The translations under genes were made by a program, and so were the position numbers. A stretch of DNA of 64,000 nt from Actinomycetes bacterium (GTDB lineage: Bacteria; Actinomycetota; Acidimicrobiia; Acidimicrobiales; JAJZXF01), in the NCBI GenBank assembly GCA_021802485.1, contig JAJZXF010000004.1, positions 1,162 through 65,161 on the forward strand, given 5' to 3'. Below, piece after piece: positions 10,544 to 29,013 of the stretch; within the stretch, counting starts at the first letter, position 1; each line of letters begins with the position of its first letter. The notes beneath the pieces were generated by a model. The model searched no databases and had not been told where the DNA came from. It saw only the letters and a program-made list of their open reading frames with translations.

Positions 10544-10556
10544 GCTGTAAGCCTCC

Positions 10557-11616: not shown

Positions 11617-11626
11617 GAGGGCTCCT

Positions 11627-13084: not shown

Positions 13085-13105
13085 TGTGGGTCTTCTCGGG
13101 CTCCG

Positions 13106-13519: not shown

Positions 13520-13561
13520 ATCTCTCCTGTTCGCATGTGCGCTTAGTCCTGGTGCGTTCGC

Positions 13562-14632
13562 TCAGAGCATCAGATCTTCGTGTGGTGCCGCACCGATTGC
13601 AGTTGCCATAGCCGCTTGAGCGGGTGGTCTTGTGTCGCCTGGGATTCCGCCGCGGGCCTGGAGTCGCGAAAGGCCACCTGGGTTGCGTGCGGTGATATCG
13701 TCTATCACGGTCACCGCGAGCCGGCGCTGCGCGGTGGTCGGGATCACCCGAAGGAAGGGCATGTCCCCTACGATCAGTTCCATCGGCTGGGTGGTGTCGT
13801 GATGTAGTGGTATGACATCTCCCGCCTGGATGTCTGCGAGGTCGGCAGCACTGAGCATGAGCGGTGCGAACCGCACAGCGATTGGCATTGGCATAGAGAG
13901 GACGTTCGCGAGAACCTTCGCTTTTTCGGCCTCCTCCGGCCGGCTCCGCGCTTGGCTTTCAGCCATCGCGTCCACTACCGAACGCATCATCGAAACGGGG
14001 ATGCAGAGGCTGAACTGGTAGGAGCGCTCTTCTGCCAGCCTTGCGTCAAGATCTGCAACCAGCCAGGTGCCGGGGCTGTTGCCCAACCCGATCACCCCCG
14101 AGCCAGATGCCGTCCGCACAACCTCGACCTTGATCGAGATGATCGGCGAGAACGTGCTCTCGAGCTCGGAGAGCATGGACTCAAAGAGTGGGGTGAGTAC
14201 CTTGAGCTCGATCTCTGTCAAAGATCGTGGCTGGATATCTGAGGCTACAGCGCCGCCCATGCGCAACTCGAAGAGCACGACCGCGAACTCGAATGGAAGC
14301 AGCAAAATGGCCTGGCCTTCGAGGGGATGCATTTCGATCTGCACGACACACATGAACGGGGTGAGCGACTCTACGATGTCGCTCCATGGCTTCTGGGACA
14401 CCTCGTCTAGGTGGACCCGCACCGCGGAGCGCAGTCCGGCGAGGCTCGCTGTAAGGGTATTGCCGGACAGGCGGGCGAAAGCGTCCAGGACGATCCGCAG
14501 GGATCGCATGCTGTCACGATCGAGGCCCATGGAACGCCGGAAGTCGTACTTGATCGCAGCCGACGGGTCCCTCGCGGGCATGGCCGTGACTGGCGTGTGG
14601 GATCCAGTTGAGCGTTTTCGAGTACTCACCAA
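13562..14632 (-). CDS. fliM: Flagellar motor switch protein FliM (no N-terminal CheY-P docking peptide)
   Basis: 356 aa. ...IKYDFRRSMGLDRDSMRSLRIVLDAFARLSGNTLTASL... plus a C-terminal SpoA-like domain. The track start is TTG 14632. GTG 14629 or ATG 14581 are alternative starts. Confidence 0.9.
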   Translation of the reverse strand: MVSTRKRSTGSHTPVTAMPARDPSAAIKYDFRRSMGLDRDSMRSLRIVLDAFARLSGNTLTASLAGLRSAVRVHLDEVSQKPWSDIVESLTPFMCVVQIEMHPLEGQAILLLPFEFAVVLFELRMGGAVASDIQPRSLTEIELKVLTPLFESMLSELESTFSPIISIKVEVVRTASGSGVIGLGNSPGTWLVADLDARLAEERSYQFSLCIPVSMMRSVVDAMAESQARSRPEEAEKAKVLANVLSMPMPIAVRFAPLMLSAADLADIQAGDVIPLHHDTTQPMELIVGDMPFLRVIPTTAQRRLAVTVIDDITARNPGGLSRLQARGGIPGDTRPPAQAAMATAIGAAPHEDLML

Positions 14633-14638
14633 GGTTTG

Positions 14639-14665
14639 TTATCGGCATGTTTGTACCAACATTGA
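14639..14665 (-). promoter_or_regulatory. Candidate sigma-28-type promoter in the fliL-fliM gap
   Basis: Minus strand reads TCAA (14665-14662), 15-nt spacer, GCCGATAA (14646-14639). The fliM TTG/GTG codons start 6-9 nt downstream. Confidence 0.45.
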
Positions 14666-14753
14666 CCGAATATTCAGAAACACCGCGCAGCTGTATTGCG
14701 AACTTGGCCAAAGCTCGTCGCGTGGAACTGGTGAATGGTGGGCCCCGGAGGGC

Positions 14754-15260
14754 TCACTGCATGATAAATGTCGTGAAGTAAACCTCCGAGACTTGCTGGT
14801 AGCCATCCTGCGTGCCGATTATGGCCTGTATGCGCTTTAGCAGTTCTTGTCTTGCTGTCCTCTTGCCCTGAAGGCTTAGGAGCTCACTGTAGTAAAAGCC
14901 ACTGAACACCGATATCTCCGCGTTGTAGATGCGTGGCTCCAGTGGGGTGATGGTCTTCACATTTGCGACCGAAGTCAGCTGGCACGCGACAGTGACCTCC
15001 AGGATGTGCCCATCTGAGAGGTTGAGAGTTGACGATGCCAGCTGGAGGATCGGGCCGTTGTGGACTCCATGGGGAGCATGGACGAGCTTCGGGTAGAAGA
15101 AGGCCGCTGTCCCGCCGACAGCGACGACGACGACCACCAAGCTCAACAGAAGGCGCCTCTTCTTGCGCGGTGGGCTGTCGGGGATTTCCGCCTCTGGTTG
15201 CCCGTTGGCTGGGGACTTCTTGCCCTGGGCAGCGGTCTCGGGAGCCTTTTGCGCCGCCAC
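14754..15260 (-). CDS. fliL: Flagellar basal-body-associated protein FliL
   Basis: 168 aa with a single TM (LLLSLVVVVVAVGGTAAFF) and a C-terminal FliL-like domain (...LNLSDGHILEVTVACQL...VSEVYFTTFIMQ). Located between motB and fliM. Confidence 0.8.
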   Translation of the reverse strand: MAAQKAPETAAQGKKSPANGQPEAEIPDSPPRKKRRLLLSLVVVVVAVGGTAAFFYPKLVHAPHGVHNGPILQLASSTLNLSDGHILEVTVACQLTSVANVKTITPLEPRIYNAEISVFSGFYYSELLSLQGKRTARQELLKRIQAIIGTQDGYQQVSEVYFTTFIMQ

Positions 15261-15262
15261 CT

Positions 15263-16075
15263 TCAGATCCTCGTCTTTCCAGGGGCCAGGACGACCACGT
15301 CTACCCTGCGGTTCAACGCTTGATTCGCTGGGGTGGTGTTGGGGGCCAGTGGATGGTTGCTCGCGTAGCCGATAGCAGAGAACCTCCCGTAGGCGAGATG
15401 GTCTGTGCGTACCAGCCGCAGCAGCACGTTCACCGCCCTCATCGCAGACAGTTGCCAGTTCGAGGAGTAAGGCCCTCCGAGAATGGGTTGATCGTCCGTA
15501 TAGCCTTCGACCGCGACGTTGTTCGTGTAGTGCGCGAGCACGCTTGCAATCGTGTCCACCACCCTCGCTCCGGTGGACCCGAGGGTAGCTGAGTCAGTTG
15601 CGTAAAAGGCCTTGTCTGCAAGGACACGTATGACTAGACCGCGACGTTCAGTGGTGATGCTCGCATTCTGGGCCAGCCCCTGGCTGCTCAGTGCCGCGCT
15701 AATCTGTGCGCCGATCTGCGGCAGAGGGGCTGCGATTGGCTGTCCGGGCGCGGGCTGTGTTGCGGGGGTTGTGCCTTGAGACGCAGCTGGGGCAACGACC
15801 GTGCCGGGGTGGGTGACGAGGCTCGTTTGGTTGAGCAGTCCCGTCCCGCCCTTTGTGAGCGGGTGAGCGTGATGAGAGAACGCGGTCACGACCCCGCTCT
15901 TGAAGGCCTCGAACTTCTTGAGGTTGATTGTCGAGAGTGCGAACAAGACGATGAATAGCGCTAGTAGCAAGGTGATCATGTCGGAGTAGGTAAGGAGCCA
16001 GCGCTCCATCCCGCCCGAACTCTCACCTTCTGGCTCCTCCGTGCGATGCCGGTTGCGGTGTGCCTGAGAGCTCAT
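15263..16075 (-). CDS. motB: Flagellar stator protein MotB
   Basis: 270 aa. ERWLLTYSDMITLLLALFIVLFALS is the plug/TM region with the conserved Asp. OmpA-like C-terminus (VEGYTDDQPI...SNWQLSAMRAVNVLRLL...NRRVDVVVL). Confidence 0.9.
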   Translation of the reverse strand: MSSQAHRNRHRTEEPEGESSGGMERWLLTYSDMITLLLALFIVLFALSTINLKKFEAFKSGVVTAFSHHAHPLTKGGTGLLNQTSLVTHPGTVVAPAASQGTTPATQPAPGQPIAAPLPQIGAQISAALSSQGLAQNASITTERRGLVIRVLADKAFYATDSATLGSTGARVVDTIASVLAHYTNNVAVEGYTDDQPILGGPYSSNWQLSAMRAVNVLLRLVRTDHLAYGRFSAIGYASNHPLAPNTTPANQALNRRVDVVVLAPGKTRI

Positions 16076-16917
16076 GCTGCCCTCCGGTGGTTCAGGTCAT
16101 CGCGTTCTCTCGGCGACAGCCACGACATGAGGCGTGCCTCGACCATCCTTGCGGTGCTGCCGGACTGGATGGCAAGAAGGCCGTCCAGCATCAGTCGCTT
16201 CTGGGCTACCTCGATGCTGCTGACGCGCTTGAGCTTGTTGGAGATGGGGATCCAGAACAGGTTGGCTGAGAGCACTCCCCACAGTGTCGCGGTGAACGCG
16301 GAGGCAATAGCAGGGCCAAGGAGTCCCGGGGAGGAGAGGTTGGCGAGGACCCTGATGAGGCCGATCACGGTGCCGAGTATCCCGAGGGTGGGAGAGAAGC
16401 CGCCCATGTCTGCAAAGAACTTTCCGCCCTCGCTATGGCGCGCTCTGAGCGCATCGATCTCGCCTTCGAGTATGTCCCGGATCTCCTCAGGATCGGTGCC
16501 GTCGACGGTGAGCTCGATGCCTTTCTTGAAGAAAGGATCCGTGATCTCCGCAGAGGCTTTCTCCAGAGCGAGGAGGCCCTCGCGTCGCGCAACCTCTGCG
16601 AGGTGGACCATCACCGGGATGGTGTCCTCCACGACGGTGTCGTTGCCAGAGAGGGCCTTCTTCGCTACAGAGGGGACGTTCTTCGCGTCTTTCATTGTGG
16701 TGCTGGCCAGAGCGGCCAGCGTCGTCCCGCCGAAGACGAGGATGATCGGTGCAGGGAGCAGGAGCGTGAAGGGGTTTCCACCATCCATGATCATCGATAG
16801 CATGACGATGGCGAAGGCCCCGATGCATCCGATCACCGTCGCGCGATCACGCGTGGGAGACTTGCTGCGATTCGCGTCCGGCGCCTGCGCCGGGGTCACG
16901 CCCCTAGGCATCGTCAC
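16072..16917 (-). CDS. motA: Flagellar stator protein MotA
   Basis: 281-aa, 4-TM MotA/TolQ/ExbB family protein (...FSPTLGILGTVIGLIRVLANL...ASAFTATLWGVLSANLFWIPISNKL). Overlaps motB by ATGA-type coupling. Confidence 0.9.
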   Translation of the reverse strand: MTMPRGVTPAQAPDANRSKSPTRDRATVIGCIGAFAIVMLSMIMDGGNPFTLLLPAPIILVFGGTTLAALASTTMKDAKNVPSVAKKALSGNDTVVEDTIPVMVHLAEVARREGLLALEKASAEITDPFFKKGIELTVDGTDPEEIRDILEGEIDALRARHSEGGKFFADMGGFSPTLGILGTVIGLIRVLANLSSPGLLGPAIASAFTATLWGVLSANLFWIPISNKLKRVSSIEVAQKRLMLDGLLAIQSGSTARMVEARLMSWLSPRERDDLNHRRAA

Positions 16918-17227
16918 TGTTCTCAGTAGGCAGCGGCGTGGGCTGCGGAGTGGGTTGTGACACTGGCATTGAAGCGAGATTTACCAGGCGAAGCCGGGCT
17001 TCTTCGGTTGGCGGTGGCGCTTGGAGGCTTGCCAGGCGCCGTGCCTCGACCCGCACGGCTGCCTTGAAGGATACGAGGAGGTCCGAGATCTCCTCGATGC
17101 TCTCCTCCACGACGTACTTTGTTCCGTCGACTAGGGTGATCACGGTGTCAGGGGTGCTCTCCGCTCGCTCGACGCGGTCCGGGTTGAGCGCGATCCTTTC
17201 CCCGTTGAGTCGGGTGAGCACGATCAT
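16904..17227 (-). CDS. flbD: Flagellar protein FlbD
   Basis: The ATG at 17227 lies 7 nt after GGAGG and gives MIVLTRLNGERIALNPDRVERAESTPDTVITLVDGTKYVVEESIEEI, the FlbD signature. The track TTG start at 17239 overlaps the RBS. Confidence 0.85.
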   Translation of the reverse strand: MIVLTRLNGERIALNPDRVERAESTPDTVITLVDGTKYVVEESIEEISDLLVSFKAAVRVEARRLASLQAPPPTEEARLRLVNLASMPVSQPTPQPTPLPTENSDDA

Positions 17228-17296
17228 TATGGCCTCCAAGGTTCATGTCATTGCCGGACTCTTGTGCCCGGCCGGCTTTCCGTAGCCTTCAATCTC

Positions 17297-17324
17297 TGAT
17301 CGGCAGCCCTTGCTGTGGAGTTGA
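17297..17324 (-). promoter_or_regulatory. Candidate sigma-28-type promoter for flbD-motA-motB-fliL
   Basis: Minus strand reads TCAA (17324-17321), 16-nt spacer, GCCGATCA (17304-17297), about 70 nt upstream of the flbD ATG. Confidence 0.4.
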
Positions 17325-17989
17325 GCACTGTCTGCTCTAGCGCCGGGATCGTCAAAGGTGTGCTCGGGTGAGGCGGGCAAGAGCACGCTGGCAGCGGACC
17401 ATTTCTCCTACGTGCCAATATCGTGCATGCGGCTGGTATTACCAGCTATCGCGAGCCCCGGGGGCCTCCGGCACCGGACTTGCTGCTTGGGCCTTGGCAG
17501 GCATCCTTGCAGCTGGTCTGGAGTCGCAGCGAAAAACGACGAGAACGTCAGGCACTTGGCGTTCTCTAGTACTCTTCGGCAACCTCCAACCAGCTCGATT
17601 TCGAGTTCTCTAGGTGCGTTCTTGGGCTAACCGGGTGAGATGTGCAATCTCACGGTCGAGATCTACTCTCTGGCCTTGCGAGGTCACCCTGGCGTAGAGG
17701 CCCAACCCGGTTTGGGATGGGCAGGGTTGTCCTTATTGGACCCGTAAGGACGCTGGGGGACCTTCGTCAGTTGCAAGAAGCGGCAGTGTCGTTGTGGAAC
17801 CACCGGTATGCGCTGTGTCGCGGATGCCCTGCTCTGTGCCCACGGGGTTGGGTTCGCGCCAGCATGGATTCAGGCGAGAGCGTACGTAGGGCTATCAGTG
17901 GGCTTGAAGCTTTGTGCTCGCAGGTATCCCAAGCTGTTCTGCGATAGCGGGACACTCTGGGACGGGAAGTCGTGCGAGAGGATTTCGAC

Positions 17990-18080
17990 AGCCCTGCACG
18001 GAGCGAGGGATAGACCATGGCTGTTGGCTGACATACCTTGGAGGAGGCTGTATCCTACCTTCGCCAATCCGTGCAGGGCT
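17990..18080 (-). repeat. Perfect 12-bp inverted repeat (long hairpin) just downstream of the flgE stop
   Basis: AGCCCTGCACGG (17990-18001) and CCGTGCAGGGCT (18069-18080) are exact reverse complements with a 67-nt spacer. The distal arm begins 36 nt after the flgE stop codon. Confidence 0.7.
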
Positions 18081-18116
18081 GCGACTTGGTTGGGCTTGGT
18101 GCCCAGGTGGCGCTTA

Positions 18117-19430
18117 TTACGGCATCGACACGAGTGCTTGGATGACCTGGCTCGAGGTGGCGACTACCTTGGTGTTTGCCTGGTAAGCCTCCTGGGCGAT
18201 GATCAGGTTTGTGAGCTGGCGGGCGAGGTTCACGTTGGATGTCTCGAGACTCCCGCCGATCAGTGTTCCCCTCCCGCCTGTTCCCGGCGGACCGAGAAGT
18301 GGCTGTCCCGAGTTCGGGCTCGCAGCGTAGTTGAGGCTGCCTACACTCGTCAGCCCACCCGGGTTCGCGAAGCTCGCGAGCGCGATCTGGCCGAGCCCGA
18401 GCGTCTCTCCGTTGGAGAAGGAACCTGTTATGACGCCGTCGTTTCCTATCGAGAATGACTGAAGCGTGCCTCCGGCGTTACCGTCCTGGCTGATTGCAGC
18501 AGCAGTGTTTTGGCCCGCGAACTGGGTTAGCGCGCCTCCGCTGCCCGGAGCAGGAAAGTCGATTTTCCAGATATCTCCGGCTGGGAAGGTGGAGTTCGAT
18601 GGCATATTGGTGACCGGCAGCGAGTAAGAGCCGTTGAGGTTCGGTGTTACGGTCACGCCGGTGTCGTTGTTCTTGATGCTAGCCAGCTGGCCTGTGGAGG
18701 TGTTGAACTGAACCGTCGCGGGGCTGTTCCACAGAGGCTTTGCCGCTCCTGGTATGGTGCCCTGTACCGTCCACTCGCCCGCGACCCCGCTGACCGGCGT
18801 AAAGGTCAGCGTTGTCGGCACCGCGTTCCCAAGGGAGTCGTACGCGTTGATTGTCGAGGTGATCGGGGTGATCGTGCCTGAGCCGCTCCACGCTGGAAGG
18901 TTTCCGCCCATCGTGATCTCAGTTGTCGCAGTTGCTGCGATCACTTCGCCGGTTGGAATGCCAATCGGCGAAGTCGGCGCATTGGTGACGATCGAGCCAG
19001 TGCTGTTTGCCTGCCAGCCCTCAACGATGCCGCCGGTTGGGGTGGCCAGCTCGCCATTTGCGTCCAGGACGAGGTTCCCTGCGCGGGTGTAATAGGTCTG
19101 ACCACCCTGCTTGACCACAAGAAAGCCGTTGCCTTGGATAGCGACGTCGGTTGGCACGTTTGTCTGCTCAATTGAACCTTGAGTGAAGTTCGTGTTTACT
19201 GCCCCAATGCGCACTCCAGAGCCGATGGACATGGGATTTACGCCAGCGCCTACAGCCGGCCCGCCTGGAGCAGCTGCACCAGTTACAAGCTGAGTCAGAA
19301 GATCGACAAAGTCGGCACTTGCCGACTTGAAGCCGACCGTATTCACATTCGCGATGTTATTGCCAATGGTGTTGAGATATGTCTGGTTTGCGTTGATGCC
19401 AGATACGGCTGCGAGGATTGATCGGTCCAT
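18117..19430 (-). CDS. flgE: Flagellar hook protein FlgE
   Basis: 437 aa. N-terminus MDRSILAAVSGINANQTYLNTIGNNIANVNTVGFK. C-terminus ...SLETSNVNLARQLTNLIIAQEAYQANTKVVATSSQVIQALVSM. Confidence 0.93.
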   Translation of the reverse strand: MDRSILAAVSGINANQTYLNTIGNNIANVNTVGFKSASADFVDLLTQLVTGAAAPGGPAVGAGVNPMSIGSGVRIGAVNTNFTQGSIEQTNVPTDVAIQGNGFLVVKQGGQTYYTRAGNLVLDANGELATPTGGIVEGWQANSTGSIVTNAPTSPIGIPTGEVIAATATTEITMGGNLPAWSGSGTITPITSTINAYDSLGNAVPTTLTFTPVSGVAGEWTVQGTIPGAAKPLWNSPATVQFNTSTGQLASIKNNDTGVTVTPNLNGSYSLPVTNMPSNSTFPAGDIWKIDFPAPGSGGALTQFAGQNTAAAISQDGNAGGTLQSFSIGNDGVITGSFSNGETLGLGQIALASFANPGGLTSVGSLNYAASPNSGQPLLGPPGTGGRGTLIGGSLETSNVNLARQLTNLIIAQEAYQANTKVVATSSQVIQALVSMP

Positions 19431-19540
19431 TTAAAGGTCTCCTTTGATATCTCTAAGTAATCGTAAGACTGCGCCTTGAGGTTTAGTTCTTTTCTGAAAT
19501 AGTTGAGACGTGAATAGCTTATAAAGTTGTTGGTGGAAAG

Positions 19541-19978
19541 TCAGGTAATAGTTGAAATACTGCTTAGTGGAACCTGGGTGCTGCCGACCGTCAGGAGTGG
19601 GCTGCCCGAGCCGGTCATATCTACCGCAGTTACAGTGCCCTGGATCGTGCTCCCACTCGACGAACGCGCTGTAACCTGCTTGCCAATTAGACTGGCGGAA
19701 GAGAGCATATTTACAGCTGACACCTGTCGCGTCATCTGCGCGCTCATGGAGGTTATCTGGGTGCTCATTGACTGGATTGCCTCTACCTCGCTCAGCTGTG
19801 CTGTTTGTGAAAGGAACTGCGTGCCTGAAGTCGGATTGAGCGGGTTCTGATATTTCAACTGAGCGACAAGCAATTGAAGAAATGTATTCGGGTTTATAAG
19901 GCTTTGAAGGCCATTTGCCTGACCAGTCGCCGGTGAGGAGGTACTAGCTGATGCTCCGATAGCTCCGATTGAGGTCAT
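19541..19978 (-). CDS. flgD: Flagellar hook capping protein FlgD
   Basis: 145 aa. ...NPNTFLQLLVAQLKYQNPLNPTSGTQFLSQTAQLSEVE... is the FlgD signature. Confidence 0.9.
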   Translation of the reverse strand: MTSIGAIGASASTSSPATGQANGLQSLINPNTFLQLLVAQLKYQNPLNPTSGTQFLSQTAQLSEVEAIQSMSTQITSMSAQMTRQVSAVNMLSSASLIGKQVTARSSSGSTIQGTVTAVDMTGSGSPLLTVGSTQVPLSSISTIT

Positions 19979-20026
19979 TATGGCTCCTATGTGGGTGGTC
20001 TATGGTCTCGGATATATGACTAGTTG

Positions 20027-21556
20027 CTATAGTGTAATGTCTACTAAATTGGTTGCGGCTAAGACGTGCTGTAGTTCCATGCCAGCTTGCGTGTCTTGCA
20101 CACGTCGATCTGTTGTTTGTTGTGGTGGTGTCGATCCGCGATTTCCGAACGATCTGCCTTGGAGGTCGTGGTGGCCCATGAGTTCGACCTGCGCATGATC
20201 GGGTTGGCTGGCAAGCGAGGAGATCTCATTGTGCAGACGGCCTAATGCCTGCTCGATGGCGGTGTGCGTCGCGTCGTTGTATGCGTAGAGGCGGACGGCC
20301 ATCTGCGTGTTTCGGGATACGAGCGAGGCTCGTATGACACCGAGGCCAGGTTCTTCGAGGCGTAGTGCTATCCGTGTGGATCCGTCGCCGGTGCTCGTCA
20401 TTGGCTGGGTGACGCTTAGCCACTGCGGTGGCTGGGCGGTTCCGGCTGGGTCGGTTGGCGTCTCGGGTGGGGTTGGGGTCGAGGTGGGTTGCGATGGCGT
20501 TTGTCGCGCCATGGATTGCGTTCCGGGCTGGGTGGACGCTGTCGTTGGTGCGAGCGTGGGCTGCCCGGGATGCGTCGTGGTTTGCGGGGAGGGTGGTTGT
20601 GGAACGGGTTGCGCCCCAGCTTGAGTTGAAGCCGTCTTTGCTTGTACCGCAGTGAGCTTCGCTGTCAACTGCGTGGCATGAGGGGATACGGTTTCGTTGG
20701 TGCCAGCGCGAAGGGTGCCAGACGGTGTGCTGGTGGGGAGTTGCTGCGCTCGGGGTTGCGCCTGGCTTGTTGGCGGTGCTGCGGAGCTCGTGGGCTGTGG
20801 CTTTGGCGGGGTGAGGAGCGCTTGGGGCTTGTCGCCTACGCAAGGACGTGAAGCCTGCGTCGCTGTTGTCTGGGGAGCATCATTACCAGAACCACTTGGG
20901 ATGCTTTGAGGCGCAATCGGTGAAGCCTGCGTCTGTGTTGGCTGTGATGCACCATTACTAGAACCACTTGGGATGCTCTGAGGTGCAATCGGTGAAGCCT
21001 GCATCTGTGTTGGCTGGGGTGCACCTGGGCCCGCCGTTTCTGTTACCGGCGGTGTTTGGACAGCACCAGGTTGGGGTTCTCGTGCGGTGTTAGCTGTTGC
21101 AGGTGGAACAGGCGTCTGTGTCGCGGACGTAAGGCCGGGAAGCTCTGCCTTTGACTGAGGACCCTGTGGTGACTGAGAACCCTGCGTGCTTGGGAGCTCG
21201 TCGTGTAACGCTGGCGCATTCCCCTCGCGTGAGCTGATGTTTGCCAGCTCGGCGGGACCACTACCGGCTTGGCTTGCTATGGCATTCTGGCTTCGACTTG
21301 CAGAGGAAGCGCTGGGGGCAACTGTAATAGCCTGTGCGGCAGCTGCGAATGTTGCGAAAGACTCTCGGGTGGGCCTGTGGTCAGCTGTTGGGTGAGCGCG
21401 AGCTCGGCGGTTGGCGGAGGTCGTAGGTGTCGGCACACTCCGACTCGTAGCGTTCTTCGGTGCGATCCTCGTACCATGGGAAGTCAGCTGCGCTGCTTGC
21501 CGGCTTACTGCGGGTTTGGGCTGGGCGGAGCAGCAGGGGGGGAGCGGCACGCTCAT
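20027..21556 (-). CDS. fliK: Flagellar hook-length control protein FliK
   Basis: 509 aa. Pro/Gln/Thr-rich ruler region followed by a C-terminal Flg_hook-like domain (RIALRLEEPGLGVIRASLVSRNTQMAVRLYAYNDATHTAIEQALGRLHNEI). The ATG overlaps the stop of the upstream hydrolase gene (ATGA). Confidence 0.8.
   Translation of the reverse strand: MSVPLPPCCSAQPKPAVSRQAAQLTSHGTRIAPKNATSRSVPTPTTSANRRARAHPTADHRPTRESFATFAAAAQAITVAPSASSASRSQNAIASQAGSGPAELANISSREGNAPALHDELPSTQGSQSPQGPQSKAELPGLTSATQTPVPPATANTAREPQPGAVQTPPVTETAGPGAPQPTQMQASPIAPQSIPSGSSNGASQPTQTQASPIAPQSIPSGSGNDAPQTTATQASRPCVGDKPQALLTPPKPQPTSSAAPPTSQAQPRAQQLPTSTPSGTLRAGTNETVSPHATQLTAKLTAVQAKTASTQAGAQPVPQPPSPQTTTHPGQPTLAPTTASTQPGTQSMARQTPSQPTSTPTPPETPTDPAGTAQPPQWLSVTQPMTSTGDGSTRIALRLEEPGLGVIRASLVSRNTQMAVRLYAYNDATHTAIEQALGRLHNEISSLASQPDHAQVELMGHHDLQGRSFGNRGSTPPQQTTDRRVQDTQAGMELQHVLAATNLVDITL
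20848..21024. repeat. 72-bp (24-codon) tandem repeat inside the fliK ruler region, about 2.4 copies
   Basis: 20881-20952 and 20953-21024 are near-identical (QPTQMQASPIAPQSIPSGSSNGAS / QPTQTQASPIAPQSIPSGSGNDAP). 20848-20880 is a partial, diverged third copy. Confidence 0.85.
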
Positions 21557-22653
21557 GCGCTTGTCCCCTGCTGGTAGCCTGCGTAGGCCATCACTGTCTG
21601 TACGTAGTTCTGGGTCTGGGTGTACGGGGGGATGCCCCCATAGCGCTGAACAGCACCGGGACCTGCGTTGTAGGCGGCTAGAGCCAGCGGGATCGAGCCG
21701 AACTGGTGGATGTAGCTGGCGAGGAGTTGAGCTGCGGCGTTGATTGCCTGTGCAGGGTTGAAGGGATCAACGCCGAGGCCGGCCGCAGTCCCGGGCATTA
21801 GCTGCATGATCCCCTCCGCTCCCGCGGAGCTCACCGCATTGGGGTTGTAGCCCGATTCAGCTCTCGCTACTGCAGCAAGGAGCTGGGGTGGGACGCCTGA
21901 TTGGCTGCTTGCTGAGAGGAACAACGGGGCGAGGTTCGCCGGGATGGACCCGAGCCCCGAAGTGCTTGGAGTAGACGACCCCCCTGAGGTCACCAACGCG
22001 CTAGGAGTTCCGTAGGATCCAGCGGTCTGAGCGGCGGTCGTTGTCGGTAGCACCCTGCGTATCTCGCATGGGGTTCCCACCGCCTGGATTTGTACAACCG
22101 TCCCAGTGTAGGGCGCGTCAATCATTTCCCCGTTTCCTATGTAGATCCCGACATGGCCCGGCCCACCGGGTCCTGGTTCGAAGAAGACGAGATCCCCGGG
22201 TTGTGCCGCAGCAAGGCTCGAGACCGGGGTACCGATAGTTGCTTGCTGCTCGCTCGTTCTGGGAAGTGCGATCCCGAGGTTCTGGTAGACGTGCTGGACC
22301 AGCCCTGAGCAGTCGAAACCGGTAGCCCGGCTGGTGCCTCCCCAGGTGTAGCGGACCCCGAGGTAGCGCTCCGCCTCGGTGACGACCTCGTTTCCGGTCG
22401 GCGATGATGGTTGCGAAAGCGTTGTCGAAGCGACGCTCGAAGTGGATCCGGTGGAACCCGAAAAGGTGTCGATCAAAGCGGCGAAGCTCGCCTGGCTCGA
22501 CTCGCTTGCCGGCGGAGCTGCGAGGCGGCTGAGCTCGGAGAACCCGGCCTTGATCGTCCCGATCGTGGTCTGGAAGCTAGCGACGCCGACAGGGAAGGAT
22601 GTGTCAGAACCGACGGATGATGGTGTTGTGACCACGCTGATCACGTTGCTCAT
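21553..22653 (-). CDS. Bifunctional peptidoglycan hydrolase: NlpC/P60 endopeptidase domain plus lytic transglycosylase (SLT) domain
   Basis: The ATG at 22653 overlaps the fliJ stop (ATGA). The NlpC/P60 motifs are RYTWGGTSRATGFDCSGLV...GHVGIYIGNGEMIDAP. The SLT motifs are ARAESGYNPNAVSSAGAEGIMQLMPGTA...AAYNAGPGAV. The N-terminal 110 aa are Ser/Thr-rich with no obvious Sec signal. The 103 extra codons of the track ORF (to 22962) overlap fliJ and were discarded. Confidence 0.85.
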   Translation of the reverse strand: MSNVISVVTTPSSVGSDTSFPVGVASFQTTIGTIKAGFSELSRLAAPPASESSQASFAALIDTFSGSTGSTSSVASTTLSQPSSPTGNEVVTEAERYLGVRYTWGGTSRATGFDCSGLVQHVYQNLGIALPRTSEQQATIGTPVSSLAAAQPGDLVFFEPGPGGPGHVGIYIGNGEMIDAPYTGTVVQIQAVGTPCEIRRVLPTTTAAQTAGSYGTPSALVTSGGSSTPSTSGLGSIPANLAPLFLSASSQSGVPPQLLAAVARAESGYNPNAVSSAGAEGIMQLMPGTAAGLGVDPFNPAQAINAAAQLLASYIHQFGSIPLALAAYNAGPGAVQRYGGIPPYTQTQNYVQTVMAYAGYQQGTSA

Positions 22654-23114
22654 CGAACGCCTCCGCTGGCGGGCGGGGATGAAGCTGCGGATCTCGTTTG
22701 CCAGCGAGTGTTGACGATGTCGTCCACCTCGAGCGCAGCACCCCGATCGAGAGCCAGGCGATGGTCCTCCTTGAGCCTGCTGTCCAGCCTGTCCAGCGCA
22801 GAGACGTTGCGTGCTGCGAGCGACCACTTCTCCATAGCGGCCTCCCTGTCCGCTGCCGTTTGGGCAAGATGCTGCGCGGCTGCGTGCACGCATGAGGCCG
22901 ACAGCTGCCTGCGGGCCTGAGCCTCGGACAGCTGAGGCAGGTCGTAGGGACCGAGCGGCCATGACAGACCTAGATAGGAACTCTCGCGCTCACGGTGTTC
23001 GTCGCCAGCTTTGGTGTGGGCGCGGTTTGCCTCGGCAAGCCTCGCGATTGCCGTACGCTCTTGAGCGCAGCGTACCCGACGCAATGTCTCGAGTGGGAAG
23101 CGGTAGCGTCTCAT
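22650..23114 (-). CDS. fliJ: Flagellar export chaperone/stalk protein FliJ
   Basis: The ATG at 23114 overlaps the fliI stop (ATGA). The 154-aa coiled-coil protein starts MRRYRFPLETLRRVRCAQERTAIARLAEANRA. Position and pattern fit FliJ. Confidence 0.7.
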   Translation of the reverse strand: MRRYRFPLETLRRVRCAQERTAIARLAEANRAHTKAGDEHRERESSYLGLSWPLGPYDLPQLSEAQARRQLSASCVHAAAQHLAQTAADREAAMEKWSLAARNVSALDRLDSRLKEDHRLALDRGAALEVDDIVNTRWQTRSAASSPPASGGVR

Positions 23115-24418
23115 CCCGCGCTCACAAGCCTCTCCAGGTATTCCCAAGACTCTCCAAGTGCTGAAGTCTCCGAGATGTCCTGTCTGCAGAAGGCGTCGAT
23201 GAACGATTTCAGCGCTATCGCGCGGTCGACCTCGGGATCGTTGCCAGCAGTGTAGGCGCCGATCTCGATGATGTCCTTTGCCTCTCTGTAGGCAGCAAGC
23301 AGCGCCCGGAGCTGGCGGGCGCTATCGCGCTGTTCCGGGTTGGTGATCGCACGCTCTAGCCGCGAGACGGATTCGAGGATCTCAATGCTCGGGTAGTGTC
23401 CGGAGGTCGCGAGCCGCCTGGAGAGAACTATGTGACCGTCGAGTATCGCCCTCGTGGTATCGGCTATGGGCTCGTTCATGTCGTCGCCTTCGACGAGGAT
23501 CGTGTAAAGGCCCGTAATGCTGCCCGTCTCTGAGCTACCGGCCCGCTCGAGCAGCCTGGGCAGTATGCCGAATACAGATGGTGGGTAGCCTCTCGTAGCT
23601 GGAGGCTCGCCTGCTGAGAGCCCGATCTCTCGCTGGGCCATTGCAAACCTGGTGAGGCTGTCCATCATTAACAGGACGTCTTTGCCCTGGTCCCTGAACC
23701 ACTCGGCAATCCGCGTGGCTACGAACGCTGCTCTCACGCGCACTGCTGCCGGTTCGTCCGAGGTCGCAACTACAACCACACAGCGGGCAAGGCCTTCGGC
23801 GCCGAGATCGTTGTGAATGAACTCGCTCACCTCACGCCCGCGCTCGCCGACCAAGGCGAGGACCGTCACGTCAGCTCTCGTCCCGCGAGCGATCATCGAT
23901 AGCAGGCTGGACTTGCCGACACCAGAGCCAGCGAAGATGCCGAGCCGCTGCCCTTTGCCACAAGGAACAAGGGTGTCGATCGCCCTGACGCCAAGCGCAA
24001 GCTGCTCGGTGATCGGCTTGCGTCGCAGCGGGTCAGGCGAGCTGGCTGCGACGCTCGCGCGCTCTACGCCTTCGAGCGGGGGACCACCGTCAATGACCTG
24101 GCCGAGGCCACCGAGAACCCGTCCGAGAAGGCTCGGACCGACATCGAGGCCGAGGGGTCTCCCAGCGGTTTCGACCGGGGCGCCGAAGTGAATCCCATCC
24201 AAGTTGCCATACGGCATGCAGGTGAGGCTGGTGCCGGATACCGCTACCACCTCTAGGTCGATCTTGTTGGCTCCTGCATGCAGCGTTGCTGTGTCGCCAA
24301 CCGCGGCCTGAACGCCCTCTACCTCTACGTGAAGGCCGAGCACCCTGCGAACGCGGCCCACGCGTCGCGGCGCAGCGGCTTGCATCGCTGCTTCGGTCAC
24401 GTCGACCGGGATGCTCAC
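23111..24418 (-). CDS. fliI: Flagellum-specific ATPase FliI
   Basis: 435 aa. Walker A GIFAGSGVGKSSLL, Walker B VLLMMDSLTRFA, F1/T3SS-ATPase fold motifs. Confidence 0.97.
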   Translation of the reverse strand: MSIPVDVTEAAMQAAAPRRVGRVRRVLGLHVEVEGVQAAVGDTATLHAGANKIDLEVVAVSGTSLTCMPYGNLDGIHFGAPVETAGRPLGLDVGPSLLGRVLGGLGQVIDGGPPLEGVERASVAASSPDPLRRKPITEQLALGVRAIDTLVPCGKGQRLGIFAGSGVGKSSLLSMIARGTRADVTVLALVGERGREVSEFIHNDLGAEGLARCVVVVATSDEPAAVRVRAAFVATRIAEWFRDQGKDVLLMMDSLTRFAMAQREIGLSAGEPPATRGYPPSVFGILPRLLERAGSSETGSITGLYTILVEGDDMNEPIADTTRAILDGHIVLSRRLATSGHYPSIEILESVSRLERAITNPEQRDSARQLRALLAAYREAKDIIEIGAYTAGNDPEVDRAIALKSFIDAFCRQDISETSALGESWEYLERLVSAG

Positions 24419-25221
24419 TGCTCAGCTCCGCTTAGCTCACCCGGATGGGATGTTCCGCTAGTCGCTGGTTCTGGCGTTCGAGCGGTCCATCGTGTTCCAG
24501 CCGATTGGAGCACGATACGAACTCGTTCAAGCGCGGACCCCATCTGTGCATCGATGTGACATGGACCTGCGTCCAGAGTGCACCCGCTCCGCTCGACCGC
24601 TGGATCGGCGATGATGGTGACGGCTCGCGTCTCACTCTTTGTCTCGAGGGGATCCAGCTCGGCGAGCGTTGACGCGTCATCCGGGTGCACGTGTATACGC
24701 AGTGGCTCGTCGCAGGGCGCAAGCGCAAGGGCGCGTGCGATCGAGTCCATCCCGGGATCCTTGGAGAGCTCGAGCTCCCGGCCGACAAGGATCTCGGTCA
24801 GGCGGAAAGAGAACTCGGTGATGTCTGCTGTAGCGACCCGAGCAGCCTCGACGCGAGCTTTCATCACGGAGATAGCGGCATCCTCTAAGGCCTTGACTGC
24901 TCTGTCGATACGCTCGCTGAGCTCTTGCGACATTCGCGCGATCTCACTTGCGACCTTTTCAGCAGCTTCAGTTGATGCTTGAGTGAGCCCGTCTTGGTAG
25001 CCAGTTGCGTACGCCTCCTCGAGCAGGCCCGAGAATCCGTAGTTCGCAAGAGCTGGCTTGTCGCCTTCTTGCTTGGCGCGTTGCTCTCGCGTTTCCACCA
25101 AATCCCGGGCGCTCGTTGGGAGCCTCACCGCTAGGGTGACGGGCTGGGCCGCGTGGGCATCAGCGCCCTTTAGAACGCAAGGCCGGGTTCCCCCGGGGTG
25201 CTTACTCCACCAGCTCGTCAT
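24415..25221 (-). CDS. fliH: Flagellar assembly protein FliH
   Basis: 268 aa. ...EEAYATGYQDGL..., a coiled-coil region, then LRIHVHPDDASTLAEL...TIIADPAVERSGCTLDAGPCHIDAQMGSALERV, which is the FliH/YscL pattern. Sits between fliG and fliI. Confidence 0.7.
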   Translation of the reverse strand: MTSWWSKHPGGTRPCVLKGADAHAAQPVTLAVRLPTSARDLVETREQRAKQEGDKPALANYGFSGLLEEAYATGYQDGLTQASTEAAEKVASEIARMSQELSERIDRAVKALEDAAISVMKARVEAARVATADITEFSFRLTEILVGRELELSKDPGMDSIARALALAPCDEPLRIHVHPDDASTLAELDPLETKSETRAVTIIADPAVERSGCTLDAGPCHIDAQMGSALERVRIVLQSAGTRWTARTPEPATSGTSHPGELSGAEQ

Positions 25222-26221
25222 TTGCCCTCACAAGGACTATCTCTCCCGCAGCTTCGAGCTCGCGGACTCTCTTCACGAGTTCAGCTTGCGCTGCCTCTAC
25301 GGTCTCTACCCTGGTTGGACCGAGGACGTCCATCTCCTCTTCGAGGTCCGCGGCGGCCCGCTCGGACAGGTTGCGGGTGAACTTCTCTCTCACATCCCCC
25401 GAGGTTCCCTTGAGCGCGATCGCAAGATCCCGTGGTGCAATGTTCCGGAGGACCTTTTGAAGCGAACGATCATCGAGCGCGATTATGTCGTCGAAGACGA
25501 ACAGGAGGTTTCTGACCTCCTCCGCAAGTTCGGGGTCGGTCTGCTCCAGTGTGGTCAGGACCTGCTTTTCCGAGGAGCGGTCAGCGTAGTTCAAGATGTC
25601 GACGAGCGACTTCACGCCGCCGCTCGCGTTATTGCGGTTCTCGAACAGCACTGAAAGCTTCTCAGCGAGTACCTCTGCGGTGTCCCGCAGGACATCCGGC
25701 GAGGTGCGCTTTGTGGTCGCTATCCTGCGGGCTATGTCCGCGCGCAGCTCCTCTGTGATCTGATCGAGCACCGCTGCGCCGTCCCTTGCCGGCAGGTGGG
25801 CAAGGACGGTCGCTACCGTCTGCGGGTGCTCCTCGGCGAGGAAGGTGGCTATCTGCTGTGGATCTATCGAGTCAAGGAAGTTGAACGGTCCCCGTGGGTC
25901 CTGCTTCTCGAGGCTGCGAAGTACCTCGTCCGCACGCTGGGCACCCATGCGAGCCTGGAGGATCTTGCGGGCTGCGTCGAAGCCCCCTTGACCCACCGAG
26001 TGCAGTGCAGCGAGTGTGCGGACGAAGTCGCCGACGAGGTCTGTGACGACGCTATGGTCGAGGGGTGGGAGCTTAGCCAGCGCGGCCATGAGGTCCACCA
26101 CCTCGACATCGCTCATCGATTTCATGATGTTAGCGACCTGATCCTCGTTCATCTGGGCCAGCATCGCGGCCGCCTTCTGGCGTCCGTTCAGGGCGCGGAT
26201 GCTGTTGACTCCCTCGCTCAT
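25202..26221 (-). CDS. fliG: Flagellar motor switch protein FliG
   Basis: 339 aa. ...LNGRQKAAAMLAQMNEDQVANIMKSM..., ...LFVFDDIIALDDRSLQKVLRNI..., ...MDVLGPTRVETVEAAQAELVKRVRELEAAGEI. Confidence 0.95.
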   Translation of the reverse strand: MSEGVNSIRALNGRQKAAAMLAQMNEDQVANIMKSMSDVEVVDLMAALAKLPPLDHSVVTDLVGDFVRTLAALHSVGQGGFDAARKILQARMGAQRADEVLRSLEKQDPRGPFNFLDSIDPQQIATFLAEEHPQTVATVLAHLPARDGAAVLDQITEELRADIARRIATTKRTSPDVLRDTAEVLAEKLSVLFENRNNASGGVKSLVDILNYADRSSEKQVLTTLEQTDPELAEEVRNLLFVFDDIIALDDRSLQKVLRNIAPRDLAIALKGTSGDVREKFTRNLSERAAADLEEEMDVLGPTRVETVEAAQAELVKRVRELEAAGEIVLVRANDELVE

Positions 26222-27819
26222 GCGCCTTCTCCTGTCTCGTGCATCCAGGAGCGCAACAGGCCTGCGACCTCGTCAGGCTGGGAGTCTATGAAGTCCGTCA
26301 AGCTTGCCCCGATACCCCCGGGGCGCTGCGGAAGGAGTGCAAGGTCTTGATTGTCGCCCGCAGTGACCGGAAGCTCGCTCGTCGGGGGGCCCGTGATCGC
26401 CAAGGTGTCCATCCCGTTAAGGGATGCTGGGATCATCGCGAGTCCACGCCGGCGGGCTGACTTACGGCTCGATCTCCAGAGCATTAAAACCACGATCGCG
26501 ATGACAAGCAGTATTGCGAGTGCCTTGATCAGGTTCAGCAGCTGTGCTCTTTGCGCCGCGGCAGCCGCGCTGGCGGCTGCCGCCTGGGCTTGTGCCTGGG
26601 CTTGCGTCGAGAATCGCATTGTCTGCACGCTCAGGACATCGCCCCGTTTTGGCTGCACCCCAGCTGCAGCAGCGATGCTCGTGCGCAACGATGCGAGAGA
26701 GACGCCTCGCGGGAGGGAGTTCACCACGACAGATACACTCATGTGGTTGATCATGCCGGGAGGCTGGCTCACGGTCTGGTCTATCGATCCTGCGGTGTTG
26801 GTAGTCGACGTCTGAGTCTGGGTGTACGTACCGCTTTGTGGAACTGGCATGCCTGGTGCGGTAATCCCACCGAGAGCGCCGCCGGCGGTGGTGCCGGTGC
26901 CAGTGAAGGTCTGATGCGTGGATTGCGAGTTGATCGGGACGGTCACTGGCACCCCAGCAGGAGTTGTCTGGATCCCCTTTGTCGTCGTGGTTGTCGTAGC
27001 GTTATTGAGGCTTACGTTCACCGCGACCGTGGAATTGTTCGTTCCGAGTATGCGCCCGAGCATGCCTTCGATCGAGGCTTTGACCTGATTGTCAACTGCG
27101 AGAGCTGCGTTGCTCGCTGCACCTTGGCCGTTTGCTCCAGGTCCCGCTAGAAGGTTGCCGTTGGAGTCGACGATCGTGACGTTCGATGCGCTCAGGTTCG
27201 CGACGCTTGCTGAGACTAGGTGCACGATCGCTGCGACCTCGCCTGAGCTCAGCACCCCGCCCTGGGCCATGTCCACCAGCACGGAGGCAGACGGGGTCTG
27301 CTGCGGGCCGAGCGCAAAAGCCGATTGGCTCGGCAAGACGAGGCTCACTCGCGCCCCGGTGACGCCGTGGATCGCTTCGATGGTGCGGGTTAGCTCCCCT
27401 TGGAGTGCTTGCTGGTACTCGACTTGTTGGGTGAAGTGTGAAGTCGTGATGCCCTGCTTGTCCAGCAACGACAGCCCGACAGTCCCACCCGAGGGCAGGC
27501 CTTGCTGCGCCATGTCCAAGCGCTGCTGGTAGACCTCGTTCTGGGGCACGAGGATCGTGCTTCCGCCGTTTGCGAGCTGGTAGGGAACCTTGTTAGCGGT
27601 GAGCTTTGCGGTGATGCCTGCTGCGTCAGTCGGCTGAAGGTTGGTGAACAAGGGGCTCCAGGATGGCGTAGATGAGACGTTGACGAAGATGACAGCCGCG
27701 ACTATCACCGCGAGAAGTGCGACGATAGTGACTGCTTTTTGTCCAGTGGTGAATTCGTTCGAGAACCGCCGTACTGCCTGCTTGATCTGCTCGAGGTAGT
27801 CGTTCATTGATGCTGGCAT
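26218..27819 (-). CDS. fliF: Flagellar MS-ring protein FliF
   Basis: 533 aa. N-terminal TM, YscJ/FliF ring-building region (...GITTSHFTQQVEYQQALQGELTRTIEAIHGVTGARVSLVLP...), second TM, and a C-terminal FliG-binding tail. Confidence 0.93.
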   Translation of the reverse strand: MPASMNDYLEQIKQAVRRFSNEFTTGQKAVTIVALLAVIVAAVIFVNVSSTPSWSPLFTNLQPTDAAGITAKLTANKVPYQLANGGSTILVPQNEVYQQRLDMAQQGLPSGGTVGLSLLDKQGITTSHFTQQVEYQQALQGELTRTIEAIHGVTGARVSLVLPSQSAFALGPQQTPSASVLVDMAQGGVLSSGEVAAIVHLVSASVANLSASNVTIVDSNGNLLAGPGANGQGAASNAALAVDNQVKASIEGMLGRILGTNNSTVAVNVSLNNATTTTTTKGIQTTPAGVPVTVPINSQSTHQTFTGTGTTAGGALGGITAPGMPVPQSGTYTQTQTSTTNTAGSIDQTVSQPPGMINHMSVSVVVNSLPRGVSLASLRTSIAAAAGVQPKRGDVLSVQTMRFSTQAQAQAQAAAASAAAAAQRAQLLNLIKALAILLVIAIVVLMLWRSSRKSARRRGLAMIPASLNGMDTLAITGPPTSELPVTAGDNQDLALLPQRPGGIGASLTDFIDSQPDEVAGLLRSWMHETGEGA

Positions 27820-27832
27820 GCTGTCGTACCCC

Positions 27833-28141
27833 TCAGATCTGCATGTTCATTACGGCGTTGAAGGCACTTACAGCCTTGTTCGCTACGGTCATGGTCAACT
27901 GGGTGGAAAGAGATGCCTTCTCTGCCGCGATCATCATGTTTGGCAGGCTTCCCTGCCCTGATGCTGCGGAGAGCTCCTGAGCGTTGGCGGCATTCTGAGT
28001 GTTTTGCAGCCCGTCGAGCGCTTTTGCAAGCGATGCCATGAAGCCACTGGAGTTGCTCGCCGCGGCGGGTGACTTTTGGACAGCGGATGCGCCGGTTGGG
28101 GCCGGGATCGCAGGCAGCGACGGGATCGGCAGTACCCCCAC
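27833..28141 (-). CDS. fliE: Flagellar hook-basal body complex protein FliE
   Basis: 102 aa. C-terminus ...MMIAAEKASLSTQLTMTVANKAVSAFNAVMNMQI matches FliE. Located between flgC and fliF. Confidence 0.85.
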   Translation of the reverse strand: MGVLPIPSLPAIPAPTGASAVQKSPAAASNSSGFMASLAKALDGLQNTQNAANAQELSAASGQGSLPNMMIAAEKASLSTQLTMTVANKAVSAFNAVMNMQI

Positions 28142-28147
28142 TATTGA

Positions 28148-28558
28148 TCAGCTCCCGAGAGTCAGTGCGGACTGGTAGGCGCTGATCGCGTGTGTTGCGA
28201 CGGCGACGTTCGACTGGTAGCTGTCTTGAGCGATGACAAGGTTCACGAGCTGAGTGCCCATGCTGACCGATGGGTACTGCACGTAACCTTGGGCATTCGC
28301 ATACGGGCTCGCCGGATCGTACGCAAGCTTGCCTTTGGGGCCGAGCGCCACTCCTGCCATCGTCACTCCCGCAGCGACCCCGCCCGGCGGGTTGCCTGTT
28401 TGAGCCGGTACAGCGATTGGGGATTCAGAGCGATATCCTGGCTGGCCGACTGGGGAGATGTCGTTCGCGTTCGCTATGTTGCCGGCGATCATGTCCAGCC
28501 AGGTGTGGGCCATGTCCATTCCGGATGCGGCTATCGGCAGTGATTGGAACATGCTCAC
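28148..28558 (-). CDS. flgC: Flagellar proximal rod protein FlgC
   Basis: 136 aa. MSMFQSLPIAASGMDMAHTWLDMIAGNIANAND... and ...MGTQLVNLVIAQDSYQSNVAVATHAISAYQSAL. Confidence 0.93.
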   Translation of the reverse strand: MSMFQSLPIAASGMDMAHTWLDMIAGNIANANDISPVGQPGYRSESPIAVPAQTGNPPGGVAAGVTMAGVALGPKGKLAYDPASPYANAQGYVQYPSVSMGTQLVNLVIAQDSYQSNVAVATHAISAYQSALTLGS

Positions 28559-28905: not shown

Positions 28906-29013
28906 TCTGCACAACTCCTAAGGCTTTTCAAGGGCACGACAAAAATCGCCGTACCGGCTTCGCAGCCATCGTGGCCCTCCGTTGTGAGCAGTCCGTGCTT
29001 CCTTACGAAGTAT

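Follow-up and report, generated by a model that had tools for sequence, protein, structure and literature searches.

The stretch of DNA analysed here, hereafter the window, comprises 64,000 nucleotides (nt) of contig JAJZXF010000004.1 from a member of the Acidimicrobiales (assembly GCA_021802485.1) and carries an array of flagellar genes on its minus strand. Within this array, between fliJ and fliK, lies a gene for a protein of 366 amino acids (aa) that joins an NlpC/P60 cysteine endopeptidase domain to an SLT lytic transglycosylase domain. We refer to the gene and its product as the hydrolase gene and the hydrolase, and collect their coordinates with those of the immediate neighbours in Table 1. 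The first part of the array reads flgB, flgC, fliE, fliF, fliG, fliH, fliI, fliJ, hydrolase gene, fliK, flgD and flgE, and after a gap of 877 nt it continues on the same strand with flbD, motA, motB, fliL, fliM, fliN, fliO, fliP, fliQ, fliR, flhB, flgN, flgK, flgL and fliW. No flgF, flgG or flgJ was found in the 64-kb window by Pfam scans.

Reading of the minus strand confirmed ATGA overlaps at both ends of the hydrolase gene, as described in a first-pass annotation of this DNA made from the letters alone. At the upstream junction (22653-22650) fliJ ends in GGC GTT CGA TGA, with its TGA at 22652-22650, and at the downstream junction (21556-21553, within AGC GCA TGA GCG TGC) the fliK ATG occupies 21556-21554. 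Overlaps of 4 nt are found at six of the 11 junctions from flgB to flgE (flgB/flgC, fliF/fliG, fliH/fliI, fliI/fliJ, fliJ/hydrolase and hydrolase/fliK); being the norm in this operon, they mark tight operon membership and nothing peculiar to the hydrolase gene. The open reading frame (ORF) downstream of the hydrolase gene encodes the Flg_hook domain of FliK (Pfam E 3e-8). The upstream ORF matches FliJ weakly, below cutoff both for Pfam (E 3e-3) and for TIGR02473 (E 3.6e-5); the name fliJ is supported by its position after fliI, its size and the Pfam FliJ matches of orthologous upstream genes. A longer ORF of 469 aa (start at 22962) was rejected as the gene, as it overlaps fliJ out of frame. 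The G+C content of the hydrolase gene (0.63-0.65) equals that of the neighbouring genes. A scan for sigma-70 promoters and terminators from 16.5 to 29.8 kb yielded none above shuffled expectation and none in or beside the hydrolase gene, and an Rfam scan of the whole window revealed no RNA families. Within the fliF-to-fliK block, the hydrolase gene forms an integral cistron that is translationally coupled to its neighbours.

Table 1. The hydrolase gene, its domains and its flagellar surroundings (window positions; AF2, AlphaFold2; pLDDT, predicted local distance difference test)
Feature	Positions	Strand	Remarks
Flagellar gene array around the hydrolase gene	5827..28914	(-)	Pfam scans
Hydrolase gene, 366 aa	21553..22653	(-)	ATG 22653-22651, stop TGA 21555-21553; at least 120 two-domain homologues
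fliJ-like gene, 154 aa	22650..23114	(-)	ATG at 23114; stop shared with hydrolase start, start shared with fliI stop (ATGA)
fliK, 509 aa	20027..21556	(-)	Pro/Thr/Gln-rich spacer and C-terminal Flg_hook; ATG shared with hydrolase stop
N-terminal region, aa 1-86	22396..22653	(-)	40% Ser/Thr, mostly disordered; AF2 pLDDT mostly <50
NlpC/P60 (C40) cysteine endopeptidase domain, aa 87-205	22039..22395	(-)	Pfam, AF2, Foldseek
Disordered Ser/Thr/Gly-rich linker, aa 206-237	21943..22038	(-)	pLDDT <50; length and sequence vary in alignments
SLT (GH23, family 1) lytic transglycosylase domain, aa 238-366	21556..21942	(-)	Pfam, invariant E266-S267

Two catalytic domains with conserved active sites

To confirm the two domains, Pfam models were run on the hydrolase, as the first-pass annotation had suggested, and both matched far above their curated cutoffs. 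NLPC_P60 (PF00877) covers aa 99-194 (E 2.8e-27, 95.2 bits versus a cutoff of 23) and is matched by all 27 members of an aligned family set, and SLT (PF01464) covers aa 245-343 (E 8.5e-28, 96.7 bits versus 21.3). All five motifs that had been taken as signs of intact catalytic centres are present, with GFDCSGLV at aa 112, GHVGIYIG at 166, ARAES at 263, GIMQLMP at 281 and AYNAG at 327. The NlpC/P60 triad consists of C115 (codon 22311-22309), H167 (codon 22155-22153) and D179, twelve residues after the histidine, the spacing at which the third triad residue also stands in Spr and RipA. The catalytic glutamate of the SLT domain, E266 (codon 21858-21856), lies inside the E-S motif. At least 120 proteins that combine these two Pfam domains came up in a protein search, and 117 of them were aligned; C115, H167, E266 and S267 are invariant in this alignment and D179 is conserved in at least 90% of the sequences. 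That the active-site residues are kept across 117 homologues indicates that both active sites are under purifying selection.

An AlphaFold2 model computed from the 27-sequence family alignment (mean pLDDT 76) places the NlpC/P60 domain (aa 87-205) at a confident pLDDT of about 90 or more and gives a confident, all-helical SLT domain (aa 238-360). When the model was compared with the PDB by Foldseek, the top matches were solved NlpC/P60 structures (E down to 8e-10, target template-modelling score 0.8-0.9, root-mean-square deviation 1.3-2.5 Å), and a sequence profile search of PDB chains found both NlpC/P60 and Slt70/MltF-type structures. Pfam, motifs, invariance and confident folds together bear out the initial claim that the hydrolase carries two intact catalytic centres.

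Among NCBIfam models, the NlpC/P60 half scores best against those of p60/Iap, DIP1281 and RipC. The best SLT model for the other half is that of the catalytic domain of BB0259, the flagellar lytic transglycosylase of Borrelia (E 8e-18). The match to this model (NF047373) reaches 64.6 bits versus the full-length cutoff of 234 and spans model positions 555-685 of 705, the catalytic part only; the hydrolase is thus not a member of the BB0259 family. Judged by family, the NlpC/P60 half probably cuts peptide stems or cross-links as a gamma-D-Glu-diamino-acid endopeptidase, and the SLT half would act as a family-1 lytic transglycosylase that cleaves glycan strands, with 1,6-anhydroMurNAc ends as products. 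No LysM, SH3 or coiled-coil wall-binding module was detected by domain scans of the hydrolase and its family.

The fliJ-fliK slot in other genomes

The two-domain homologues share 49-97% identity in the alignment, and those with names come mostly from Acidimicrobiales metagenome genomes, where they are annotated as 'NlpC/P60 family protein'. To survey related flagellar loci for the same fusion, a step proposed at first pass, one genome per species was scanned and the flagellar proteins of the window were compared by tblastn with 80 retrieved loci. In all 19 loci with enough flanking sequence (17 genome loci and two metagenome genomes) the two-domain gene lies between fliI(-fliJ) and (fliK-)flgD-flgE. 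It stands just upstream of flgD-flgE in each of the 17 genome loci, and fliI is upstream in 16 of them, the exception being one locus (L002) in which no upstream flagellar gene is shown. In three further loci limited by contig ends (L005, L014 and L074), fliI likewise lies upstream of the two-domain gene. In the two metagenome genomes, the gene overlaps by 4 nt with neighbours called as fliJ and fliK/flgD, and the upstream genes match Pfam FliJ. Across the 17 genome loci, a 4-nt overlap with the upstream gene is present in about 16 and with the fliK start in 12. The taxa concerned are Geodermatophilus, Micromonosporaceae, two Nocardioides, Pimelobacter, three Kineococcus, Aquipuribacter, Cellulomonas, a metagenome-assembled genome (MAG) of the Mycobacteriales and several Acidimicrobiia.

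The position is therefore kept in every two-domain orthologous locus examined, which, together with the translational coupling, upholds the claim that the gene is an integral part of the export/hook operon. The first-pass annotation had considered a lack of linkage between orthologues and flagellar genes in other genomes; the orthologues are linked, as were all two-domain matches of the species-level scan. Its statement that the combination is not known from flagellar operons needs correction, since all 19 two-domain loci, from Acidimicrobiia and Actinomycetes, have it there.

The same linkage bears on whether the hydrolase could be a general autolysin of growth or cell separation that is merely co-expressed with motility genes, like LytF of Bacillus subtilis, and is exported by a non-flagellar route. 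RipA, RipC, CwlO and LytF are indeed NlpC/P60 enzymes of growth and separation, and the peptidase half resembles p60/Iap, DIP1281 and RipC most. However, the strictly kept slot inside the core export/hook block, the exclusively flagellar linkage in the species-level scan and the lack of a Sec signal and of LysM, SH3 or coiled-coil wall-binding modules make an autolysin of this kind very improbable.

Orthologues in this slot are usually 340-400 aa long. A protein of 459 aa (P0086) and an open frame of about 650 aa (L006, 5653-7627) exceed this length, which suggests that the longer slot orthologues carry extra C-terminal sequence.

An apparent orthologue has been listed, in a transcriptome table and without functional analysis, for Actinosynnema pretiosum, where CNX65_RS11925 ('nlpC', annotated as Transglycosylase SLT domain-containing protein) stands in the order flgBC-fliEFGHI-tolA(=fliJ)-nlpC-fliK-flgD-flgG(=flgE) (PMC9019756); annotation and gene order, and not sequence, identify it as such. 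Its transcript is up 9.8-fold together with those of flagellar genes in a phoP mutant (PMC9019756), and this co-regulation supports a flagellar role.

The same order of domains also occurs outside flagellar operons. An NlpC/P60-then-SLT module with 41% identity lies in a tape-measure-like protein of 1481 aa on the Clostridium botulinum plasmid pRSJ2_2 (L084, 6195-10640), with a tape-measure fragment and a distal tail protein as its neighbours. Another is found in 532-aa proteins on many Rhodococcus plasmids, annotated as M23/peptidoglycan DD-metalloendopeptidase (for example L085, 5245-6843, on a Rhodococcus ruber plasmid). Such modules could be taken to mean that the hydrolase gene is a passenger, a lysin gene from a phage or conjugative element inserted by chance. 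Yet its base composition is identical to that of its neighbours, it overlaps both of them by 4 nt, it occupies the same slot in two actinobacterial classes, and its divergence across loci (43-63% identity) is comparable to that of the flanking flagellar proteins. On composition and synteny we reject horizontal transfer of a passenger gene, which retains hardly any credibility. The occurrence of the module in phage tail and plasmid proteins indicates that the pairing of a glycan cutter with a peptidase is recurrent in machines that cross thick walls, the flagellar version being a further case.

In other classes and phyla, the same slot (fliI ... SLT ... flgD flgE) is filled by SLT-only homologues of 170-250 aa, which we found in at least 14 loci: Solirubrobacterales/Thermoleophilia (L039, L041, L065), Egicoccus (L061), two Actinomycetes-labelled MAGs (L024, L045), Anaerolineae/Chloroflexota (L028, L033, L042), Armatimonadota (L025, L031, L057), a Thermomicrobiales fragment (L023) and one unclassified bacterium (L059). 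In these proteins the SLT domain is preceded by a short N-terminal region made up of an 'RIxxIQxxI'-like amphipathic helix with an 'sFasaL'-like motif behind it; the fusion family has helix and motif in this order too, although the match is statistically weak. Bacillaceae proteins of the same shape, which resemble CwlQ of B. subtilis in size and layout, are not flagellar-linked and show 48-57% identity to the SLT half of the window protein. For both the SLT-only slot proteins and the Bacillaceae proteins, the best NCBIfam SLT model is again that of the BB0259 catalytic domain. From these sequences, the simplest history looks like one in which an ancestral CwlQ-type gene occupied the fliJ-fliK slot and an NlpC/P60 domain was inserted between its N-terminus and its SLT domain in the lineage of Acidimicrobiia and Actinomycetes.

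The distribution of the fusion can be set beside that of the rod proteins. Acidimicrobiia, Nitriliruptoria and Actinomycetia have been reported to lack FlgF, FlgG and FlgJ (PMC10746217), and because these are absent, no other rod-associated wall enzyme is known in Acidimicrobiia and Actinomycetia. The fusion is present in two of the three classes, and Egicoccus, of the Nitriliruptoria, has only the SLT form.

Proposed export and action at the cell wall

The first-pass annotation described the N-terminus as a Ser/Thr-rich stretch of 110 aa with no obvious Sec signal peptide. The composition and the lack of Sec features hold up; the length shrinks to about 86-98 aa. By simple sequence rules, none of the 27 family members shows Sec, Tat or lipobox features: 26 of the 27 have no lysine or arginine among their first ten residues, and there is neither a positively charged n-region nor a hydrophobic core of the Sec type. 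AlphaFold2 predicts a helix at aa 24-44 of this region (pLDDT 50-67), which contains a nearly invariant motif, G-x-F-x-x-x-L, reading ASFQTTI (aa 25-31) in the window protein. Positions G25, F27 and L31 are conserved in at least 90% of the 117 sequences, and the rest of the N-terminus is variable.

A precedent for export without a classical signal is CwlQ (YjbJ), which consists of an N-terminal DUF and an SLT domain and carries neither a Sec nor a Tat signal; it is a member of the SigD regulon, and its secretion is FliF-dependent and needs its residues 2-35 (bioRxiv 10.1101/2021.01.13.426625). Both CwlQ and the hydrolase have a poorly conserved, non-catalytic N-terminus without Sec or Tat features by the rules applied, followed by a family-1 SLT domain with its catalytic glutamate, and both belong to flagellar gene sets. 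On the other hand, CwlQ has 244 aa and one catalytic domain, is encoded by a late, SigD-dependent, stand-alone gene outside the fla/che operon and is dispensable for assembly, whereas the hydrolase has an NlpC/P60 domain before its SLT domain, and hence two catalytic domains, and is encoded inside the early fliF-to-fliK block. Because secretion of CwlQ depends on FliF and proceeds in the absence of Sec and Tat signals, the flagellar type III apparatus would by analogy be the most likely export route for the hydrolase as well, and aa 1-86 are a candidate export or targeting region. Homology of this region to the N-termini of CwlQ-type proteins is kept as a suggestion only.

The comparison with the FlgJ muramidase made at first pass stands as a functional analogy and fails as a statement of family membership. 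Salmonella FlgJ is likewise a flagellum-encoded wall hydrolase with a disordered N-terminal part, which is exported via the flagellar type III apparatus and acts where the rod meets the peptidoglycan. The hydrolase differs in having a GH23 lytic transglycosylase and an extra peptidase instead of a rod cap and a GH73 glucosaminidase. Membership of the FlgJ family was rejected, as no Rod-binding domain (PF10135) was detected at E <= 1 in the 27 members and GH73 (PF01832) appeared only marginally in four of them (best E 0.11). BB0259 (LTaseBb) of Borrelia burgdorferi and SltF of Rhodobacter sphaeroides are SLT-family lytic transglycosylases dedicated to the flagellum too. They are separate, Sec-exported periplasmic proteins of diderms that are recruited by the FlgJ cap, and neither has a peptidase domain; BB0259, moreover, has 705 aa.

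A glycan cleaver and a cysteine peptidase are combined in one polypeptide, which serves the trans-envelope machine of a thick-walled cell, in CwlT (ICEBs1), TraG (pIP501) and PrgK (pCF10), the wall hydrolases of Gram-positive conjugation systems. These proteins carry the glycosidase first and are linked to type IV secretion, not to flagella. In the hydrolase the peptidase precedes the SLT domain, and its neighbours are flagellar in all two-domain loci. The contrast in domain order that had been drawn initially thus applies to CwlT, TraG and PrgK and does not extend to mobile elements in general, given the C. botulinum and Rhodococcus plasmid proteins with the same order.

Taken together, we consider the hydrolase to be, probably, a flagellum-dedicated bifunctional peptidoglycan hydrolase that is exported via the flagellar type III apparatus and opens the wall around the rod. 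As its gene is translationally coupled within the fliF-to-fliK block, the hydrolase would be synthesized alongside the proteins of the export gate, rod and hook. It would then most likely pass out of the cell through the type III apparatus among the early substrates, with its disordered N-terminus as guide, and be set free at the growing rod tip. There, the SLT domain would cut glycan strands and the NlpC/P60 domain peptide stems or cross-links of the thick monoderm wall, so that a hole is opened or widened for rod and hook and space is cleared for rotation.

Several points weigh against wall opening by an exported hydrolase. First, we found no functional study of any family member in the literature (coverage without the 2016 Actinoplanes missouriensis flagellar cluster paper), and the absence of signal peptides comes from simple rules and not from SignalP. 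Second, the N-terminus is only weakly matched to those of SLT-only proteins that occupy this slot (hhalign P 0.004, probability 8%), and a hidden Markov model of Acidimicrobiales N-termini recovered one close relative strongly and some same-slot SLT-only proteins marginally (E 0.003-0.3), and did not recover the Actinomycetes orthologues. Third, Egicoccus has the SLT-only form despite the reported absence of FlgF, FlgG and FlgJ (PMC10746217), so that the endopeptidase does not strictly go with a simplified rod. Finally, flagella elsewhere call for caution: CwlQ is dispensable for building flagella in B. subtilis, even when four other hydrolases are deleted (bioRxiv 10.1101/2021.01.13.426625), B. 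subtilis basal bodies have been proposed to seek pre-existing pores and not to make them (PMC12153297), CwlQ has been described as promoting swarming by raising flagellar torque (bioRxiv 10.64898/2026.05.21.726928), and the enzymatic activity of Salmonella FlgJ is reported to enhance assembly without being required for it (PMC13584718).

The dispensability of CwlQ, the pore-seeking model and the torque effect make a post-assembly role the main rival. The hydrolase would then trim peptidoglycan round the built basal body, lowering the drag on the rod or aiding the engagement of the MotB stator with the wall, and so increase torque, but would be unnecessary for the rod to penetrate the wall. The cwlQ mutants of B. 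subtilis form flagella and swarm poorly, in line with such a role, and the SLT domain of the hydrolase falls in the same subfamily as the Bacillaceae CwlQ-like proteins, as their identity and shared best NCBIfam model attest. Against this, CwlQ is late, SigD-dependent and separately transcribed, whereas the hydrolase gene is translationally coupled to both fliJ and fliK and has early genes for export, rod and hook around it; this early-operon coupling speaks for action at the rod/hook stage. An extra endopeptidase also suggests an opening of the wall beyond the needs of trimming. We regard remodelling after assembly as unlikely, if deserving of serious attention.

Another possibility is that the N-terminal helix and its G-x-F-x-x-x-L motif bind the rod tip and replace the FlgJ cap, with the enzymatic domains simply carried along. 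The cap domain of Salmonella FlgJ, at its N-terminus, is itself largely disordered, and the conservation of the motif within an otherwise variable region would suit a binding site, as would the reported absence of FlgJ from Acidimicrobiia and Actinomycetia (PMC10746217). However, the Rod-binding model gives no signal in any of the 27 members, B. subtilis rods are built without any cap, and the motif could equally well be an export or chaperone signal, so that a cap substitute appears a good deal less plausible than remodelling.

Wall opening by an exported, flagellum-dedicated hydrolase hence remains the reading we favour. More tentatively, and with doubts outweighing confidence, this reading can be widened: the Actinomycetota device may be a dedicated wall opener of Gram-positive flagella, an early type III substrate required for the passage of rod and hook, making holes where B. 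subtilis seeks them. Its N-terminal motif might dock at or cap the rod tip, the SLT-only form might be ancestral, and a slot-encoded wall cutter might be an ancient trait of Terrabacteria flagella.

The gene family is already in databases under generic names, and its class is that of the flagellar wall hydrolases CwlQ, FlgJ and SltF, here bifunctional and embedded in the core operon. How flagella cross the multilayered Gram-positive wall is an acknowledged open question. The Kearns laboratory has stated that no dedicated flagellar wall hydrolase is known in Gram-positives (bioRxiv 10.1101/2021.01.13.426625; PMC12153297), the pore-seeking model for B. subtilis basal bodies having followed the knockout of five candidate hydrolases. 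A 2023 survey of actinobacterial flagella asks how the simple rod crosses or assembles in the thick wall (PMC10746217); it included CwlQ as a query and discusses no hydrolase, and its supplements contain no mention of CwlQ, NlpC or SLT. Similarly, a paper on thioredoxin and flagellation in A. missouriensis (PMC13083903) makes no link to the hydrolase. A hydrolase in the core export/hook operon is a concrete and genetically tractable candidate for the wall-crossing question, the presence of an SLT gene between fliJ and fliK in several phyla, monoderm or atypical, amounts to a broader pattern, and the pairing of glycan cutter and peptidase recurs in phage tails and conjugation systems.

Other observations in the window

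The remaining flagellar genes show some particulars of arrangement. The flhA gene (1510-3576, plus strand) lies apart from flhB (9431-10543, minus strand) and is divergently oriented, and flgN, flgK, flgL and fliW follow directly after flhB. An ORF of 498 aa after flhA (3557-5053) has no Pfam match. In the spacer of fliK, a 72-nt (24-aa) tandem repeat is present in 2.5 copies with 87% matches (20848-21025), and its repeat number could serve to tune FliK as a hook-length ruler.

The 877-nt gap between flgE and flbD (17240-18116) contains no credible ORF and no Rfam match. One minus-strand frame reads 'GLYARVTSQGQRVDLDREIAHL...' and then 'DVLVVFRCDSRPAR', which resembles a decayed N-terminus of a serine recombinase (resolvase), although Pfam Resolvase matches at E 0.13 only. 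Just upstream of flgB (29560-30880, minus strand), two overlapping ORFs of 225 and 232 aa each correspond to one half of the AAA_21 model and look like a split or frameshifted ATPase gene; the G+C content of this region, about 0.70, is above that of the flagellar operon. Further along, a 1021-aa ORF (55695-58760, minus strand) has no Pfam match at E <= 1e-4, and a TnpB-like gene with OrfB_IS605 and a Cas12f1-like TNB domain (47765-49189, minus strand) lies amid cobalamin biosynthesis genes (CbiX, CbiG and tetrapyrrole methylases at 37.8-43.2 kb).

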